Below are positions 7,089 to 16,743 of a DNA stretch of 64,000 nucleotides, piece after piece. The notes below the pieces were generated by a model that worked only from the letters and a program-made list of their open reading frames with translations, was not told where the DNA came from and made no database searches. The stretch is from a phage. The position numbers and the translations under genes were made by a program. The stretch is taken from the NCBI GenBank assembly GCA_036436775.1, contig GCA_036436775.1_3676.1; one strand, given 5' to 3'. The first letter of the stretch is position 1. Each line of letters begins with the position of its first letter.

Positions 7089-7119
7089 TGCAAAAATGCC
7101 CCACCCTTTCGGGCAGGGC
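7089..7119 (-). terminator. rho-independent terminator (hairpin family A, copy 1)
   Basis: On the minus strand GCCCTGCCCGAAAGGGTGGGGC is followed by ATTTTTGCA; 15 nt after the stop of the upstream CDS. Confidence 0.6.
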
Positions 7120-7134
7120 TATGTTAACTAATTG

Positions 7135-8361
7135 TTAAAAAGGGATGTCATCATCAAAGGAGTACTGTGCTGGATTCTGATCCATTGGGTCATCTTCCTC
7201 ATCATTTACAGGAGGAGCGTCTACAGTGTTTTGCTGTGGAGCTGCTTCCTGTTTGGCAGCCTGAGGTTCTTGATGGTCAGTTGACCCAGCACCGTTCTTG
7301 ATCCAATCGTACAACGGCTCAGCCAGATTAGTCAAGACATCTTTTGCTTCTGCAGTAATTGCCGCTGCAAAATCATCAACTTTCGTTTTCTTGTCAATAC
7401 GGCGACAAGCGTTCAACACCGCATTACCGACACTGGCACCTACTTCATCTTCAGTTCGGTTGGTGGCTTGAGCATACTCTTTCTTAAGCTCAATGGTGAC
7501 TACGTGCAGTGTTTTAGCCACGCCTAGTGGGTCGTCTACCTTAAACCCGCGATCCAGGATGATCTGCAACGCATTGATGCTATGCCCCGTCTCCACACCA
7601 ATAGGGTCGTAAGAGGATTTACGCTTGCCACCAGAACCTTGGGTGCCGTTCTCTGCCTTAGGTGGATAGGCTTTGAAACCACTGATAATGTTTCCGGTGT
7701 CTTTGTCAACAATGGCTGCAACACGACCACCTACCACCAGGTCTTTAAGCTGCTCATCCGTGACAACCATAGCACCTTCGCCGATCTTGTGGTCATTAAC
7801 AGTAACCACGTTGCCAACAATCTGAGTCACATCGCCATAGATGCGTAAAACGTCCTGATTGGCATTCTGCTGAGGTTTCTGCTTCTGACCTTGTGATTGT
7901 GCACCTTGTTGCTGTTTTTGCTGCTGAGTCGCTGCTGGAGCCTCTCCTGCACCCAGTTTGACCATCTTAGCCAGTGAGCCTTTGTAATAGGTCTTACCGT
8001 TATGCTCGTTTGCCTTCAAAGGAATATTTACGATCCATCCTGGCGTTACGGTTTCCCACTTGTCATCAATCTTAACAGAGACAGAGTCTTGATGACCAGG
8101 TTTAAGCAGCTTATCACCCATGCTGATCCAGACTTCTTCACCGCCTTGAAGCAGGTTATCAGAGGAATCCAGTTCAGAAATCAGTAAAGAGATGGTGTGG
8201 CTGGATTCAATTTTCTTACCTTGCCACACAGTGGTTTTAATACCTGTTGCAGGATCAGCCCCTTTAATAGGTTTGATGCTAACACGCTTGATCATACCGT
8301 GAGCCAGTAAAACAGTTTCACGCGGATTCATCGGGTTAGCGAATTGTTGAATAACGCTCAT
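7135..8361 (-). CDS. putative ssDNA-binding protein (T7 gp2.5-type functional analogue) with SSB-like acidic C-terminal tip
   Basis: Ends ...DEEDDPMDQNPAQYSFDDDIPF, identical to the E. coli SSB tip DDDIPF; Q/G/P-rich linkers; sits in a T7-like replisome cluster. Fold not recognised by eye. Confidence 0.45.
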   Translation of the reverse strand: MSVIQQFANPMNPRETVLLAHGMIKRVSIKPIKGADPATGIKTTVWQGKKIESSHTISLLISELDSSDNLLQGGEEVWISMGDKLLKPGHQDSVSVKIDDKWETVTPGWIVNIPLKANEHNGKTYYKGSLAKMVKLGAGEAPAATQQQKQQQGAQSQGQKQKPQQNANQDVLRIYGDVTQIVGNVVTVNDHKIGEGAMVVTDEQLKDLVVGGRVAAIVDKDTGNIISGFKAYPPKAENGTQGSGGKRKSSYDPIGVETGHSINALQIILDRGFKVDDPLGVAKTLHVVTIELKKEYAQATNRTEDEVGASVGNAVLNACRRIDKKTKVDDFAAAITAEAKDVLTNLAEPLYDWIKNGAGSTDHQEPQAAKQEAAPQQNTVDAPPVNDEEDDPMDQNPAQYSFDDDIPF

Positions 8362-8726
8362 TATTTGTCTCCTTGTTCTTCGTTAGTGTTTGCCGTGTGT
8401 GCAAACCCTGCTTGAATTAATTTGTCCTGAACTTGAGCCAACAGGCCCATTGCAAAACTTGTGGTCCCAGAGAGGGCCATCAACATATCTCGTTGTTGAG
8501 CTACCCAACCTAAGGCATAGTCCAAACGACGATATTTTTCTTCTTCACGCAGAGCCTGAAATAATTGTTCAGCCTCCGGTTGTTGTGTGAGCTCCTGAAG
8601 TCTTCCCATGAAAGAAGAAAGCACTAGCAAAAGAGACACTTGATCTTTACTTAACCCTAAGAAAAATTCTTGAGGTTGTTCTTGCTCGTTCATCGCAACC
8701 GACTCTTGATCGTTCATTTGTTCCAT
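8361..8726 (-). CDS. hypothetical protein (121 aa)
   Basis: Start codon overlaps the neighbouring gene boundary (coupled). Confidence 0.5.
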   Translation of the reverse strand: MEQMNDQESVAMNEQEQPQEFFLGLSKDQVSLLLVLSSFMGRLQELTQQPEAEQLFQALREEEKYRRLDYALGWVAQQRDMLMALSGTTSFAMGLLAQVQDKLIQAGFAHTANTNEEQGDK

Positions 8727-9757: not shown

Positions 9758-10026
9758 GCTTCCTCATCATCTAAGTAATCATCAAGAGAGGTGAAGATTT
9801 CACCGAAGTATTCTAAGATTTCTAGCTCACGTGTGGTGCAGCAAACATAATCGCCTTGGTCGTCCTTAATAGTGGCCTCTTTACCCAGAATATCTACTTC
9901 AAGTTCATCGTTCAACAGGACGGCCCCTGTGTAAACTTTGTCAGCTGTGCAGTCACGAAAAGCAGAGTCCTTCTCCAGATAGCCTGGCTTAACCTTGGCT
10001 TTAATTCGTTGGTATTGTTTGGTCAT
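9754..10026 (-). CDS. small acidic protein, paralog A (90 aa)
   Basis: Shares KPGY/KPEC...AF(R/K)DCT...KDD(Q/E)GD...CT with the next gene. Confidence 0.5.
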   Translation of the reverse strand: MTKQYQRIKAKVKPGYLEKDSAFRDCTADKVYTGAVLLNDELEVDILGKEATIKDDQGDYVCCTTRELEILEYFGEIFTSLDDYLDDEEA

Positions 10027-10090
10027 TGCTGTGGTCCCCCTTTCGTTTTGATAGGGCCATTATATTAGGCCATATCACTGTTGTCAAGTA

Positions 10091-10345
10091 TTAATGTTCA
10101 GTTTTTACAAAAACTACTTCGTTAACAGTGCACCAGACAGAGTCTCCTTCATCATCTTTAAAGGTAAGGCACTGTGCTGAGTTTTCCAGCTCATCAAGCT
10201 CTTCTTGTGATAGAGGGGCCCCTTCTTCCAAAAGGGCTTTTACCAAAGGGTTATCACAAAACTCTGCTTCATAAATAGCGCCAAGTGTGCAATCTTTAAA
10301 AGCTCGGTCGTTTGCAACGCATTCTGGTTTCAACATGATTTTCAT
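10091..10345 (-). CDS. small acidic protein, paralog B (84 aa)
   Basis: Paralog of 9754-10026. Confidence 0.5.
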   Translation of the reverse strand: MKIMLKPECVANDRAFKDCTLGAIYEAEFCDNPLVKALLEEGAPLSQEELDELENSAQCLTFKDDEGDSVWCTVNEVVFVKTEH

Positions 10346-10421
10346 CTTGGAGGTCTCCTTAATTATTTAACAATCAATGCTCTGTTTGTGGGAAGTATCT
10401 TACATCTAACCTTACTTCTTG

Positions 10422-10820
10422 TCAACGACTATTTTCAATCATCCACCAAGGATCAAGGTAGGTTTGTTGACTTTTTGCCCACTGGCAAACATCTTCGTAC
10501 ATCTGAACTTCGTTTTCAGTCAGTTCGCGAATAGGCTCATCTATACCCTCATTTTTGTGGTAATCCCAGCTGGCATCGATTTCCCATAGCCACGGTTTGT
10601 TATTTCCACGTTTACGCACACAGAAGTCACCAGGACGGCCTGCCAATGCATTTAAGAACTCGTTCTCCGCTCGCTCCTGAAGAATACTAAGGAGCAAAAC
10701 GTTGGAGCATGACCGTAAAATATGCTTCAGCTCGCAGTCATCAATCTCAACTTCAATACGTTGTTTGACTGTGTGGGTACCTTTTACTAACATCCTACCT
10801 CCTCTAAACGAACTCTGCAA
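10422..10820 (-). CDS. hypothetical protein (132 aa; start may be the internal Met)
   Basis: ORF in array. Confidence 0.45.
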   Translation of the reverse strand: MQSSFRGGRMLVKGTHTVKQRIEVEIDDCELKHILRSCSNVLLLSILQERAENEFLNALAGRPGDFCVRKRGNNKPWLWEIDASWDYHKNEGIDEPIRELTENEVQMYEDVCQWAKSQQTYLDPWWMIENSR

Positions 10821-10998
10821 GAGTTGTGTTGTTCACTGCACCGCAGTAAATGGAGTATCCCAGCCCATTAGAGTGCAGAAACCACGGCGTGCCGAAATTA
10901 TCTTTCACGTAGACATCGCCGTTGTTTGTAAAGGGCCAATATTCTTCACCAAGGGTAAAATACCTATTCATACCTTCAGCAAGATACTTTACTTTCAT
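10804..10998 (-). CDS. hypothetical protein (64 aa)
   Basis: ORF in array. Confidence 0.35.
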   Translation of the reverse strand: MKVKYLAEGMNRYFTLGEEYWPFTNNGDVYVKDNFGTPWFLHSNGLGYSIYCGAVNNTTLAEFV

Positions 10999-11222
10999 AG
11001 GTCCTCTTCAACAACTACAAACTTGGCAAGCAAAGTGGTTCCGTAGATATGATACTCACCGTTTGCCAGGTGAGAGATATACCAGGCAACCCCTTCCTCG
11101 TCTTTAATCATTTTGTTTGCACGAGCTTTATCGTAATAAACCTCGTAGGTCTTTCCTTCTTTAAAGAATGACAGGTCTGTCATCTTTTCTTCTACAAAGG
11201 TAGCTTTAACCAAAGTCGTCAT
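10995..11222 (-). CDS. hypothetical protein (75 aa)
   Basis: ORF in array, coupled stop/start. Confidence 0.45.
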   Translation of the reverse strand: MTTLVKATFVEEKMTDLSFFKEGKTYEVYYDKARANKMIKDEEGVAWYISHLANGEYHIYGTTLLAKFVVVEEDL

Positions 11223-11593
11223 TGATCGGTCTCCCTCTTGTTAAGTCTGAATACTGCAATAATAGCATTCCCAAGGTGCAGTGTCAAGTCATTTCCAAGA
11301 TACCACAGCATCCCACGGTCATCTTTAATGAAAGGGTAACAATCTGGTGCCTTCCAGACATTGTACACTTTCCCAACCTGAAAGAAATCAGGCCCTGTTG
11401 GGATTTTGGTACCAGGCCACACTTGAGATACCTGAACACACTCCACCTGCATAATAACAGGAATAGTCATGGATGTAAATGTTTTTGTTGGTTCTACTAC
11501 CATAAAAGTTTCCTCTTTGCTTAACAGCACCTCCCTGTGCTGATAGTTTACATTAGTGACAATCACCCCAGTTACGACCACACAAGTATTCAC
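11219..11593 (-). CDS. hypothetical protein (124 aa; 5' end uncertain)
   Basis: ORF-track start overlaps polymerase exon 2 by 41 nt, so the true start is probably internal. Confidence 0.4.
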   Translation of the reverse strand: MNTCVVVTGVIVTNVNYQHREVLLSKEETFMVVEPTKTFTSMTIPVIMQVECVQVSQVWPGTKIPTGPDFFQVGKVYNVWKAPDCYPFIKDDRGMLWYLGNDLTLHLGNAIIAVFRLNKRETDQ

Positions 11594-11906
11594 CTGTGAT
11601 CTGGAACGGGACTCCCATCATTTTAGAAGCTTGCCAGAAGCAATGCACCACCATTTCACCTACAGGGCTCCAGATAAGTTCAAGCTTTCCGTCATCGTTC
11701 AGGATAGGATCGTACACCGTGTTTCCGTCTCTGTCAACCACTTCGTTTCCGTCCTCATCCTTGCGTGCTTTTTTGTACTTATGACCGTCGAACACATGAA
11801 GTTTGGCCTCCTGCTCTGCCTTAAATGCTTCCAGTTCTTCAATTGTGTCGAAGGTGTACACAGTCTTATACTTCGGTGTGTCAGGGACTTGAAGTTGGTA
11901 CTCATC
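11553..11906 (-). CDS. DNA polymerase (family A), exon 2
   Basis: Begins DEYQLQV (completes motif C xHDE) and ends GRNWGDCH, the typical Pol A C-terminus (compare T7 ...GPNWAICH); boundary +/- a few nt. Confidence 0.7.
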   Translation of the reverse strand, partial: DEYQLQVPDTPKYKTVYTFDTIEELEAFKAEQEAKLHVFDGHKYKKARKDEDGNEVVDRDGNTVYDPILNDDGKLELIWSPVGEMVVHCFWQASKMMGVPFQITGEYLCGRNWGDCH

Positions 11907-12242
11907 CAATAGTTCAGGTAGGTCGTTAAGCTACCCCGCACCATTACGTGCATAGCCATACGTTTTCACGTAGGATCGGACCATCTCATATTCCTATGAT
12001 AAGCAACCACAGGAATCCTCCCATTTCGACCGCACTTGCTGGTCTACTTCCTTTCGGAATGGCCTCTGAGCGTTCGCTCTTTTGAGCGCTTCGTTGCGGA
12101 TTACCTTGCCATAAGGTTTAGGCTTCCCGCAGTTAAAGAGGTTATTCGACATAGATTACTCTATGAAGCCACAATGTTATTTATGGTAATAAATAATACG
12201 GCGAACACCTTCATCGTACCACCCACGCTTCACCATTTGGTG
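11907..12242 (-). mobile_element. group I intron (ORF-less, ~336 nt) in the DNA polymerase gene
   Basis: Minus strand carries core elements in order: P AACTGCGGGAAGCC (12121-12134), Q AATCCGCAAC (12093-12102), R-like GTAGACCAGC (12038-12047), S GAGATGGTCCGATCC (11974-11988); stop codons in all frames; ends in G. Confidence 0.6.
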
Positions 12243-14606
12243 GTGCATGAGTATCCCAACTAAGTCACACAGCGATGCACCACCATTCTGTTGGTATGCA
12301 TTAAGTAAAGAGTGTTTAGATCGGGTCCAGATAGCATGACCATCAAAAGAGTAGATAAACTTCTTACCAGTTGCTTCCCAGAATTTCTCCAGATCCTCTT
12401 TGCGCCCCTTAAGACCGGGGTTGGCATCCCAAAGCGCATCGATTACCCTTTGTCCCAACTCTGGAGAGATGTCCAGCATATCTGCAACTTTATCTTTTTG
12501 TGCCCCGTACATAACCCCATACGTGATAGGTTTACCGTCGTTACGGGACACCTCTCTACCTGCTACTTTCGTATATGCCTCAGCATTGTTTTGGTGTGCA
12601 TCTCCGTTACTTACAACATCGTAATACAGGCCGTTGTCGAACTCAAAGGCACCCCAAGCCCCGATAAGCTGCTCTAAGTTGGACCCGTCAATACCGATCT
12701 CAAAGTATCCTGGAGGAACACCCCACAAGCTACGCATCTCTTTACCCATAACCACTTTAGGAGATGGTTTAGGCATGTTTGCACAAATACTGTGTTTCTG
12801 TCTGGAAGTGTTTGTCAGCCCAGAACTTTTAGCAGGAAGCTTATGGTCAATCTTCAAACGTGGGTGATTAAGAAGACCAGTATCAACCTTATCCTCCTTG
12901 ATTGGATCAAGGACCGATCTGCGGTTTCGCAATGATAACCACAAGACGATATCTTTAGCCATCTCTCCGTTCAATTTTTCAAGATTCGGACACAGGTGTC
13001 CAAACGTATCTTTCAGTTGCGGAGAAGTAATAAGTGCTCTGGCTTTTCTACGTATTTTCCCGAATACTTCCTTTTTAATCCTTTCAGAGTTAGGAAAGCT
13101 TCGGAACTTGTGCACAGTTGTCTGGAACTTGGCATCAGTTTTGTTCCAGAAGTTGATAATCAGGTCACAATACTCTGACTCTAAAAGCTCGTCCATATAT
13201 GCATATACTCGTGCATCAACATCCGCATCAGGTAGAGCTTTCTTCTTGCTATCTTTAGTTACATCTTTAGTTCTCCACATTGTCGGTAGCCAGCCAGCAC
13301 TGATCAGATACCGCTTAATGTCGTCCTGATTGCTGATTTTCATAGGTATCTTGCAGTCCGGCATTCGCTTCTGCTGTAGATCACTTATTGCCTGATCCAT
13401 CAGCTCTTTAGGCAAAGGGTGGGGTGTGGAAGTGCCCTTAATATAGCCTCTCAAGAAATCAGCCATCTTATCGGGGTCTTTGCAGCCCATCTCTTCACAC
13501 CATTTTATCCCTATCTTGCTGACATCCCCTGTAGAGGTAAATGCTCGCTTAGGCGGGGCTTTGAACTCTAAAGCGCTCATGTCTACAGGATAGCCAAGCT
13601 TATCTTTTAACCATTTCCAACCATTATTAGAGATTGTCCCGTCTTGGTTAAACGGCTTTTCAGGGAACTTGGGCCGCTGAGACATTGACAGCTCTTTTAA
13701 AGGCAGCTGTGGTTCAACACGATCAGCGATTTCTTTCATCCACGCATCGCAACGGTCACGTAAAGCAATAGCTCCATCTATGTCGAAGTATACACCCTGA
13801 CGGGCCTGCAGCTCCATCAGGAAGTGCTGCAGCATGCCTCGACGTAGTGCGTTCTTCCAGGTGATCTTCTTGAACCCTTTCGGCTTCTCTTTGGCTGGAT
13901 CGTACATAAAGTTCTGCATGTCAGATTTGCCGTAGAATACACCTTTTGATTCCGCTACCAGCTCTTTCCAGAGCAGCTCCTGGATGATAACGTCCTCGAA
14001 TACACGATCCACATACTTCCACAACGGAAGATCGCGCCAGTCATCAATTTGAACTTTCTGGTTACCAAGGGCGTAGCCCCATGCCATAAGGCCGTGAGGA
14101 CCAACGGGCTGCATTTTCTTAGTAACCGGGTTGAATACAGAATCCGGACAACCTTTTGGTAAAGGGCGATCAGGCCACAAGATTCGGCTCATCGCCAACG
14201 TATCAAACAGATTAACCTGGTGGTCGTTGATAGTCCCCATACACTTAGGGTCACGGAACATATCAAAATGAATACCGGATAATCTTTCCATCAGCATAAA
14301 GTCATAACTGTAGCAGTTATGGCAGTTCAAAGCTGTTGGTGACCAGTCAGAATTTCCTGTAAGCCAACCTTCCAACTCCGAAAAATCTGCTATGCGAACT
14401 TCAAAATCTTTATAAAGAGTTTTCTTTGCCAGAATAAAGTTCTTAGCCTTCTCTATATCCTCTTCAGAGTAGTGTGTGCGGTCATTTAGAGGAAGGAACA
14501 GCATAAAACGGTTCTTATTCAGCTCTTTAAACAAGCCGCAGTGATAATAAAGATCTAGGTCTTCTAGTAAACCAGAGGCCTCAAGGTCGAAAGACCACAT
14601 ACTCAT
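12243..14606 (-). CDS. DNA polymerase (family A, T7/Pol I-like, with 3'-5' exonuclease), exon 1
   Basis: Exo I FDLEASG near the N-terminus; motif B RNDGKPITYGVMYGAQ; ends ...LVGILMH just before the intron (ORF track reads 22 codons into the intron). Confidence 0.8.
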
Positions 14607-14664: not shown

Positions 14665-16743
14665 TTAAAAAGGTGTTTCATCGTCTTCAAAACCTGGAAC
14701 AGGGTCAGAGGACGGATCATCATACGGAAGGTCTTCCTGTGTGTCAACAGGGTTAACAGTAGGAGTTACAACCTTATCAGCCACAACCCTACCTACAGGT
14801 GTTTCTACAACTGCGTGCTCTTGATCCTCGAACATAGCTTGAGGTCTCCAAACAACCTCCCCACCTTCGCCGTCTGTGAACATCTGCATTTCTTTGTCCC
14901 AGTACCAGTTGCTGGCATCGTGGAACTTACCTGTGTGGGGATCCATAACTAAGGTATCCGCAATGCCTAACGTTTTTGCTGGGCGGTTTTTAAGACCTAC
15001 CAGTCGGACACGTCCACGGGAACGATCCACCATCTCTTCTGCCTCCACCCCAACAACTACCCAGCTAAGTTGCTCCAATCCGGCACTACCCCGAAGGTTC
15101 TCTTTTCGTACAGGATACCAGAAAGGTAACGGATTCCCATCCTTGTCCTTTGGAGGCACAATCTCTGTGCGTTTCAGGTGAGCGATCACCAAGATAAATA
15201 CATTAAACTGCTTACAGAACGCGGCTAGTTGCGTCATAGCCATGTCAAGTTCTTTGCGCTCATCCTTAACATTAAGCCCTGAAATTACCATGGACAGGTG
15301 ATCCAGCACAATGTAACGGCAGTGATACAGACACACCATTTGTTTAAGCTTAGTGATCAACTCATCTACAGGAATAGACCCAAAATGCTTGAACACTTTG
15401 ATTTTTCCCGCCTTGGCCCAAGATTGGTGAATCTCGGCATGCTCCTGATCAGTCAGGAACTGACTAGGGTCTTCAACAAACTCTTTAACATCAAACCCCA
15501 ACTGGTTGGCGTATAGAGAGTTAATTGCTTCCTCAGGGTCCTCTTCAAGGTGAATCAGACACAGGCGATCATCCTCTTCATAATCATCGGCTTTAGGGCA
15601 TGTCGGATCCATCAAGTATTTTGCAATGCAATGTTCTAGTTTCTTGGCTACAGTTGTTTTACCACCGCCAGATGGGCCTGTCAGCATCATCAAGGTGCCT
15701 TTGTGGAGTCCTTTCAGCATCTTCTGCAATTTAGGGAACTCCGCGCTGATATCTACGCCATTAGAAGTCTTCTTACGAAGAGATTCAATGGAGAAGTCTT
15801 CTAAATCAGATACAGCATCGGGCACATATTTGACTGGGTGACGGAACATGTTGACAATATCTTCCAGCTTTTTAGCCTTCAGCATGTCACGGATATCTTT
15901 TACACCGTCAGGGTCGTTTACCTCACTGGGGTATTCCACGTGGTAAACGTTATCAGCCATCAAAAATGCCGCGATATTATGTGTGGCTTCAACACCTTTG
16001 ATAACGTGTTTTTGCTTCTCTACCTCGTTAGCTGCATCGTTGTCCATTGCAAGGACCACTGTTCCGTAGCTACGGATAAATTTCTCATTGTTTGCAAAAG
16101 TATCTACTGCGTTTGCACATCCACAGTTAATTCCAACAAAAGGTAGACAGGGTTTTCCTGCCAGATCACCTCCGTTGATAACTGCATCGATCCCGTCCTG
16201 GACCTCTTTAGCCCACTGCTTAACCTTTGCTGGGGCCTTGGCATTAGTGAGAATCCCTTTTACTTGTATCTGATATGCAGCCTGCCACGCTGCAATAACA
16301 TCACCTTCCCCCTCACAAACGTTAATTTGCTTACGGTTGTTGGAAGATGCACACAGCTTTTGACCAAACATCTGGGAGTTAGCCTTCACGATCCCAACCG
16401 TCGTAAAGTGCCCACGTTGCTCTTTAGGAATCGTCCAGTCACGCTTTTTGAAACCGGATAGATTTCCGTAGCGGTCGTAATATGGGAAATATGTTGCAGT
16501 GACTGTCACACCGTCTTCTTGGGACAATGCTGATCGCACACCAAAATATTGTGCAGCCATCAGACCGATGTTTTGTTGCGGGACAGGGACAATTTTAGTA
16601 TTTTCTAAAACAGTCTCTACAGTTTCAACTTCTTTTTCATCACGATAGTCTCGTTTCACACTTCCCCCACTTTTATACTTAGTTGCTTTCGGGTTTGGCT
16701 CACCGAAACGGTTGTATGCAGATGCCATAAATTTACTTCCCAT
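14665..16743 (-). CDS. primase-helicase (Toprim primase + DnaB-like SF4 helicase, T7 gp4-like)
   Basis: Toprim motifs VCEGEGD and VLAMDNDAANE; Walker A MLTGPSGGGKTT; acidic C-terminus ending FEDDETPF. Confidence 0.8.
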   Translation of the reverse strand: MGSKFMASAYNRFGEPNPKATKYKSGGSVKRDYRDEKEVETVETVLENTKIVPVPQQNIGLMAAQYFGVRSALSQEDGVTVTATYFPYYDRYGNLSGFKKRDWTIPKEQRGHFTTVGIVKANSQMFGQKLCASSNNRKQINVCEGEGDVIAAWQAAYQIQVKGILTNAKAPAKVKQWAKEVQDGIDAVINGGDLAGKPCLPFVGINCGCANAVDTFANNEKFIRSYGTVVLAMDNDAANEVEKQKHVIKGVEATHNIAAFLMADNVYHVEYPSEVNDPDGVKDIRDMLKAKKLEDIVNMFRHPVKYVPDAVSDLEDFSIESLRKKTSNGVDISAEFPKLQKMLKGLHKGTLMMLTGPSGGGKTTVAKKLEHCIAKYLMDPTCPKADDYEEDDRLCLIHLEEDPEEAINSLYANQLGFDVKEFVEDPSQFLTDQEHAEIHQSWAKAGKIKVFKHFGSIPVDELITKLKQMVCLYHCRYIVLDHLSMVISGLNVKDERKELDMAMTQLAAFCKQFNVFILVIAHLKRTEIVPPKDKDGNPLPFWYPVRKENLRGSAGLEQLSWVVVGVEAEEMVDRSRGRVRLVGLKNRPAKTLGIADTLVMDPHTGKFHDASNWYWDKEMQMFTDGEGGEVVWRPQAMFEDQEHAVVETPVGRVVADKVVTPTVNPVDTQEDLPYDDPSSDPVPGFEDDETPF

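Follow-up and report, generated by a model that had tools for sequence, protein, structure and literature searches.

The 408 aa protein encoded on the minus strand at positions 7135-8361 of the window, that is, of the whole 64,000-nucleotide stretch of phage DNA analyzed here (contig GCA_036436775.1_3676.1), is quite probably a replicative phage SSB: its OB fold would coat ssDNA, a helical bundle would self-associate, and the C-terminal tip would dock onto proteins with SSB-Ct pockets, a reading that draws on fold, conservation, genetic context and analogy. The SSB-like nature of the protein and its host-like tip have already been described for an orthologue with 99.5% identity, and the main idea is thus not new. 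Since, in addition, the tail of the primase-helicase encoded nearby turned out to be a family trait, our analysis provides confirmation and context rather than a discovery. What it adds is a domain map that includes the bundle carrying the defense escape sites, an account of how large the family is, how it is distributed and in which synteny it is found, a quantitative contrast in the constraint acting on two C-terminal tips, and the homology of the replisome to that of T7.

The SSB-like gene and its published orthologue

The gene and its immediate surroundings comprise the following elements, listed together with the position of the orthologous gene, which a homologue search matched at exactly the coordinates given:

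7135..8361, minus strand: gene for the 408 aa SSB-like protein (PHROG 4477, orthologue of Bas52_0087 / bas48_0087)
7135-7137, minus strand: TAA stop codon of this gene
8361..8726, minus strand: upstream ORF for a 121 aa protein (PHROG 7310, function unknown)
7098..7119, minus strand: terminator-like GC-rich hairpin with T-run, 16 nt past the stop codon of the SSB-like gene
MZ501102, 75981-77207: bas52_0087

Translation of the minus strand at 7135-8361 yields 408 aa with the C-terminus ...NPAQYSFDDDIPF followed by the stop, or ...DQNPAQYSFDDDIPF, i.e., ...YSFDDDIPF. The earlier note had equated the ending SFDDDIPF with the tip of E. coli SSB, and this is borne out, with the coordinates correct and the gene on the minus strand, in that the last seven residues, FDDDIPF, are those of the E. 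coli SSB C-terminus (...EPPMDFDDDIPF, PDB 1eqq sequence). A reading of the plus strand was ruled out for this stretch as well as for 14665-16743, where the primase-helicase is encoded, as both translations are stop-ridden.

The protein matches PHROG 4477 over residues 1-408 with an E value of 2.9e-173. At the DNA level, the gene is 97.5-98.5% identical to sequences in >100 genomes of Vequintavirus (rV5-like) coliphages, and in almost every Vequintavirus record it is labeled "hypothetical protein". Full-length matches of ~97.5% identity also come from GenBank entries that bear the name 'Campylobacter phage' (16-21 records, MG0656xx, with C. jejuni as host); these genomes are Vequintavirus-sized and look like mislabeled or contaminating coliphage genomes.

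The 121 aa ORF and the SSB-like gene share one base, 8361, between the stop of the former and the start codon of the latter, and the same overlap is found in the phages CarlMeissner (bas48_0086/0087) and RudolfGeigy. This arrangement suggests that the two genes are probably translationally coupled and that the 121 aa protein is a possible functional partner. The hairpin at 7098..7119 is argued to be a terminator from its position, the hairpin scan as a whole being no richer than shuffled sequences.

The closest described relative is Bas52_0087 of phage RudolfGeigy (QXV84166.1), with which the window protein shares 406 of 408 residues (99.5%), including the FDDDIPF tip, D252 and Y351. It is practically the same protein at the same locus, and nothing material differs. 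A preprint of 30 April 2026 (bioRxiv 10.64898/2026.04.29.721553) reports that mutants of Bas52 (RudolfGeigy, MZ501102) that escape DRT10, a reverse-transcriptase defense system, map to Bas52_0087 (D252V and Y351C), and that Bas52_0087 is required for triggering DRT10. Expressed alone, the protein is neither toxic to E. coli nor sufficient to trigger the system. It was termed an SSB-like protein encoded by the phage, with an FDDDIPF C-tip resembling that of E. coli SSB, and was described with two OB folds and a disordered C-terminus. Overexpression of the host exonuclease ExoI (SbcB) weakens DRT10 defense, and the hypothesis put forward is that Bas52_0087 competes with SbcB (bioRxiv 10.64898/2026.04.29.721553). 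The idea of the earlier note that the phage protein competes for host SSB partners has thus been proposed independently, and it finds indirect genetic support in the DRT10 escape mutants and in the ExoI/SbcB dosage effect. The primase-helicase with its tail, the polymerase, a replisome like that of T7 and the spread of the family are not topics of the preprint.

Domain architecture and distribution of the family

The remark in the earlier note that the protein has no obvious canonical OB-fold SSB sequence agrees with our profile comparisons. Pfam gave no match for the 408 aa protein or for any of the 28 aligned members of its family, and NCBIfam SSB models and PDB SSB sequences (profile search) matched the tail only. 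TIGR00621 scored 12.3 bits against a cutoff of 53.95, again in the tail region only, and by its sequence the protein is no match for PF00436/TIGR00621. A BLASTP comparison with T7 gp2.5 revealed no similarity (E at least 3.7), and among the DUF2815 / Enc34-type phage SSBs there were only weak structural hits to DUF2815 proteins (BFVD, E 4e-3).

Structure prediction had been named in the earlier note as a way of looking for an OB fold, and the AlphaFold2 model that we built with a 28-sequence alignment predicts one, of the SSB/PriB/RPA class. The model comprises three confident domains (aa 1-139, 170-236 and 251-358) plus disordered segments and a tail (aa 359-408):

7945..8361, minus strand: N-terminal OB-fold domain, aa 1-139, predicted beta-barrel with a pI of 9.1
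7855..7944, minus strand: Gln/Pro-rich disordered linker 1, aa 140-169, pLDDT 25-34
7654..7854, minus strand: small middle beta-barrel, aa 170-236, with strands b1-b3, a short helix and strands b4-b5 according to DSSP of the model
7288..7611, minus strand: four-helix bundle, aa 251-358, pLDDT about 90, helices 253-270, 278-299, 304-321 and 328-355
7162..7287, minus strand: disordered acidic Pro/Gln-rich linker, aa 359-400, pLDDT 27-41, column identity 0.39
7138..7161, minus strand: C-terminal tip YSFDDDIPF, aa 401-408, following the SSB-Ct consensus of an acidic run and then [ILV]-P-F-COOH

As far as the predicted model goes, the protein thus has the OB fold of the SSB structural class, together with a disordered linker and an acidic D-D-D-[IL]-P-F tip with a free carboxylate. 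It also has the architecture of PHROG 4477 and Bas52_0087, namely an N-terminal OB fold, a helical domain, an acidic linker and an [ILV]PF tip. The conserved residues of the N-terminal domain, a putative ssDNA-binding module, include those listed as aromatics (H55, W78, W102, Y125 and Y126) and the lysines K25, K30, K49, K97 and K123. Linker 1 varies in length and sequence across the family alignment. The middle barrel, with five predicted strands and one short helix, is OB-like in topology and is termed a second OB fold in the preprint (bioRxiv 10.64898/2026.04.29.721553); it is deleted in five relatives (P0052-P0056) and in most of the more distant SSB-like family representatives.

The best-conserved part of the family is the four-helix bundle, in which G255, G259, H260, N263, G312 and L316 are invariant, and distant homologues match this bundle and the tail only. 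No informative structural match was found for it, and we consider it a putative oligomerization or interaction domain. In the model, both sites of DRT10 escape in the orthologue, D252 and Y351, lie inside the bundle, which is resolved here beyond the published description of Bas52_0087. The linker that follows has a net charge of -9.

A comparison with E. coli SSB (PF00436 / TIGR00621) brings out the non-canonical build of the protein. The OB domain of the bacterial protein has no sequence homology to the window protein, whose barrel is larger (140 aa) and whose total length is 408 aa as opposed to 178 aa. Unlike in E. coli SSB, the OB fold of the phage protein is separated from the linker by two insertions, a small second barrel and a four-helix bundle. 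By analogy, the segment of aa 359-400 takes the place of the intrinsically disordered linker that bacterial SSB has.

A word-indexed search retrieved 56 homologues down to 30% identity, and when 1.84 billion cluster representatives were searched exhaustively with a profile, 248 family clusters only were obtained. The family members are either long (about 350-420 aa) or short (about 260-300 aa), the short form being without the middle barrel. Homologues were found in 359 phage records with Escherichia, Klebsiella, Salmonella, Cronobacter, Pectobacterium, Erwinia and other hosts, phi92-like and phAPEC8-like phages among them, and a handful of these records carry the annotation "SSB". In viral contigs, the gene adjoins those for a family-A polymerase and a primase-helicase, even where the SSB-like proteins are only about 30% identical. 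In the curated BASEL phage CarlMeissner, bas48_0087 is located downstream of genes for a Dda-like helicase, methyltransferases, a "DNA primase/helicase" and a "DNA polymerase". The annotations for 28-137 kb of this genome further include a DnaQ-like exonuclease, a 5' exonuclease, a ligase, EndoVII and ribonucleotide reductases; no SSB, sliding clamp or recombinase is annotated in this region, which follows the first 28 kb with the structural genes, and a phmmer search of all its ORFs with E. coli SSB retrieved nothing. Taken together, the predicted OB fold, the linker with its SSB-Ct tip, the position in the replication module and the lack of any other recognizable SSB support the proposal of the earlier note that the protein is an SSB analogue.

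C-terminal tips and the T7-like replisome

The six frames of the window contain 293 ORFs with a length of at least 50 aa, of which only two end in PF, namely those for the 408 aa protein and the primase-helicase, and the same two are the only ones with the motif [DE][DE][DES][ITVL]PF anywhere. Two such tips in one window are more than chance. A reference Vequintavirus genome contains, in ~110 kb, just one other real gene that combines an acidic tail with an aromatic end; it encodes the RNR beta subunit, and its tail is the classic one for R1 binding, which is unrelated. The elements of the replication module that matter for the comparison of the two tips are:

14665..16743, minus strand: T7 gp4-type primase-helicase, 692 aa, TOPRIM plus DnaB-like helicase (PHROG 239, E 6e-159)
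14668..14691, minus strand: its C-terminal tip GFEDDETPF, a gp4-type acidic tail with terminal Phe
about 16474-16743, minus strand: its N-terminal about 90 residues, without a Cys4 domain
12183..14606, minus strand: exon 1 (aa 1-808) of a family-A (T7 gp5-like) DNA polymerase, the candidate docking target of both tails
11556..11906, minus strand: polymerase exon 2 (aa 809-925), located by tblastn with the intact CarlMeissner polymerase (99% identity)
11907-12192, minus strand: ORF-less group I intron (RF00028, Rfam match 11957-12192)

As the earlier note had it, the primase-helicase ends in FEDDETPF: translation of the minus strand gives 692 aa with the C-terminus ...DPVPGFEDDETPF before the stop, or ...SDPVPGFEDDETPF. 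The protein combines a TOPRIM domain with a DnaB-like helicase (Pfam matches DnaB_C and AAA_25), and its TOPRIM acidic residues E146, D148, D234 and D236 are invariant. It is 25% identical to T7 gp4 over 528 aa (E 4e-22), with gp4 residues 111-546 aligned, and both proteins have homologous TOPRIM and helicase domains and an acidic, Phe-ended tail. The tail of the phage protein is longer, extending about 50 residues past the helicase core, and ends in T-P-F where that of T7 gp4 ends in T-D-F (...SNDTDF). An equivalent tail, ...EFPEDEDCPF, is kept by the primase-helicase of a sister genus.

The polymerase gene is interrupted by the intron, which at 64.7 bits exceeds the gathering score of 50 (E 4e-16) and splits the protein within catalytic motif C (...IIYYH|DEYQ...), between aa 808 and 809. 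A truncated gene is therefore not what the 'polymerase' ORF of 809 aa represents. CarlMeissner (L001) and a second relative (L002) lack the intron, a third (L003) has it, and similar splits occur in three further contigs (L004, L005 and L013). The spliced polymerase of 925 aa is a homologue of T7 gp5 (E 2e-19). Much longer polymerase ORFs in some relatives (L012, 3296-7057, 1253 aa; L017, 4864-8178, 1104 aa; L020, 4997-8329, 1110 aa; compared with 925 aa for the intact protein) suggest inteins or other in-frame insertions, and the polymerase gene appears to be a hotspot of mobile elements among these phages. The T7-like replisome suggested in the earlier note is accordingly found in the form of a gp4 homologue and an intron-spliced gp5 homologue, with no clamp annotated.

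In a strictly T7-like alternative, both tips would do nothing but tether their proteins to the phage family-A polymerase, the identity of one of them with the host tip being inherited or coincidental. Besides the gp4 and gp5 homologues and the lack of an annotated clamp, this alternative is favored by the fact that in T7 the tails of gp2.5 and gp4 bind the same basic patch on the polymerase (PMC12339929) and that the window polymerase has two lysines where this patch aligns: in a gapped local alignment, the T7 front basic patch KWKRRW corresponds to GKKF beside a six-residue gap, with two Lys only. T7 gp2.5 would share its niche with the putative SSB described here, that of an SSB in a clamp-less replisome with gp4-type helicase and family-A polymerase. 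Its tail is likewise acidic with a terminal Phe (...EADEDGDF), which is essential in gp2.5 (PMC12339929). The two proteins differ in domain architecture and have no sequence similarity, and the tip of gp2.5 is of the D-F type, whereas that of the window protein is of the bacterial I-P-F type.

The constraint acting on the two tips speaks against such a purely T7-like role. For the tail comparison, we gathered 80 gp4-like primase-helicases from viral contigs. A terminal Phe is present in 59 of them, mostly past an acidic stretch, with endings as diverse as DF (16), PF (12), EF (9) and YF (7); acidic Phe-ended tails are thus the rule in gp4-like helicases, as the strictly T7-like alternative would have it. 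An [ILVM]PF end, however, occurs in only 6 of the 80, compared with 101 of 132 SSB-like representatives. The latter figure refers to diverse family members of at least 230 aa, 114 of which end in F and 107 in PF; 10 more of the 132 have the motif with a short extension after it. P407 and F408 are invariant in the SSB-like family alignment, mean column identity is 0.83 for the 8-residue tip versus 0.39 for the preceding 42-residue linker, and several distant members end in EPPMDFDDDIPF, the last 12 residues of E. coli SSB. Docking to a polymerase patch requires acidity and a terminal aromatic residue only, and this is all that the helicase family has to retain, whereas the SSB-like family is held to I-P-F. 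The SSB-like tip therefore appears to face pockets of the SSB-Ct type and not merely a patch on the polymerase; since it agrees with the SSB-Ct consensus much more closely than a tail of the T7 type would have to, host SSB-Ct pockets are its most likely fit. The genetic link between the orthologue, DRT10 and ExoI, an SSB-Ct-binding enzyme, likewise points to crosstalk with the host. We therefore consider a purely T7-like role of both tips unlikely.

The tips that the earlier note saw on both proteins are thus real and its interpretation is largely right, with a qualification for the primase-helicase. Specific mimicry of host SSB by the latter was rejected, since ends in Phe are common in the gp4 family; to judge from the sequences compared, its FEDDETPF tail is an ordinary trait of that family.

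Two further observations concern C-termini in this group of phages. In about 10 of the 132 SSB-like family members (P0006, P0019, P0044, P0048 and P0051 as well as loci L006, L011, L013 and L017, with ORFs overlapping about 10001-11240), the IPF tip is directly followed by a conserved extension of ~15 residues with the consensus [AS]P[IV]GLQ[YH]G.x.[IL][YH][AC][LIF], e.g., APIGLQYGRSRIYAL. The carriers are spread over divergent branches of the family, and with the extension in place, the carboxylate of the terminal Phe, by which SSB-Ct pockets recognize the tip, would be buried. A hidden extension of this kind (APIGLQYG...), produced by read-through or frameshifting, was considered for the window gene and discarded: the TAA is followed by the terminator hairpin, and none of the frames of the window encodes an APIGLQYG-type peptide. 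In phi92/phAPEC8-like contigs, furthermore, an ORF of the nucleotidyltransferase family lies directly upstream of the SSB-like gene:

L018, 8866-9549, and L020, 8959-9552, plus strand: PHROG 10174 nucleotidyltransferase ending in ...DTDDDIPW or ...EEDDIPW

These DDIPW ends would make it a third kind of protein with an SSB-Ct-like tip in these replication modules.

The primase-helicase also departs from T7 gp4A at its other end, where it lacks the N-terminal Cys4 zinc-binding domain. No Cys4 zinc ribbon was found, the first cysteine being residue 131, and the N-terminus cannot be extended, as the ORF begins at the first start codon past an upstream in-frame stop. A CxxC...CxxC pattern is present in 69 of the 80 gp4-like relatives and in the phi92/phAPEC8-like versions (L016 and L018). 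Template-directed priming in T7 depends on this zinc domain, with which gp4A recognizes primer sites. The missing zinc ribbon raises the question of how the phage primes its lagging strands, and host DnaG, which binds SSB-Ct, is one possibility for the lagging-strand primase.

Mode of action and significance

The SSB-like protein, a member of a non-canonical, phage-restricted family (PHROG 4477), would then act as the replicative SSB of a T7-like replisome that has no clamp. Its N-terminal OB fold, which is basic, would coat ssDNA at phage forks, possibly with the help of the second barrel, and the four-helix bundle with its DRT10 escape sites may mediate self-association or cooperative binding. 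The long acidic linker would present the [F/W]-D-D-D-I-P-F-COOH tip as a docking peptide that most likely fits the SSB-Ct pockets of host ExoI/SbcB, RecQ, PriA, DnaG, chi and others. The host SSB-interacting proteins would be either recruited to phage ssDNA or competed for against host SSB. The same tip may also touch the phage polymerase, as the tail of T7 gp2.5 does. For the primase-helicase, FEDDETPF is the acidic, Phe-ended tail typical of its family; in T7, such a tail tethers the helicase to the family-A polymerase.

An extension of this scheme, which we regard as quite a long shot, is that the Vequintavirus replisome is a hybrid of T7-type and host components, in which the gp4-type primase-helicase has lost the zinc ribbon and the SSB-like tip, and perhaps the P-F tip of the helicase, recruits host DnaG and perhaps other SSB partners to the forks; DnaG does bind SSB-Ct (PMC3632105). 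If this were true, the tip would be essential replication hardware, and systems of the DRT10 type would detect host ssDNA-processing enzymes that have been diverted.

The tip could also serve as a decoy for host takeover or counter-defense that sequesters ExoI and other enzymes, with the barrels as mere scaffolds and host SSB coating the ssDNA. We hold this to be highly improbable: the synteny with polymerase and primase-helicase is kept across very divergent phages, the N-terminal domain is basic and has conserved aromatics and lysines, and T7-like replisomes normally bring their own SSB, of which no other was found in 28-137 kb of CarlMeissner. A decoy would, moreover, not need three conserved folded domains, and expression of the orthologue alone is not toxic to E. 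coli (bioRxiv 10.64898/2026.04.29.721553). A recombination mediator or annealing protein, RecO-like with its OB and helical domains or gp2.5-like, instead of or besides a replicative SSB, has hardly anything to commend it, as RecO binds SSB-Ct rather than carrying one, the RecO matches span only the generic OB barrel (67-68 residues), and there is no zinc or helical-domain match.

With the protein read as a replicative SSB, the gene, labeled "hypothetical" in almost all of the ~360 phage records, can be annotated as a putative SSB, and the replisome can be described as T7-like, with a gp4-type helicase, a family-A polymerase, an acidic-tailed putative SSB and no clamp. Phage SSBs are central to replication and a recurrent infection cue for Hachiman, Nhi, retron Eco8, AbpAB, Hna, DRT9 and DRT10. 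Throughout a clade of large enterobacterial myoviruses, the exact docking peptide of the host is kept by a protein that is unrelated in sequence to bacterial SSB, and this retention suggests that the phages employ the peptide either against the SSB interactome of the host or in concert with it.
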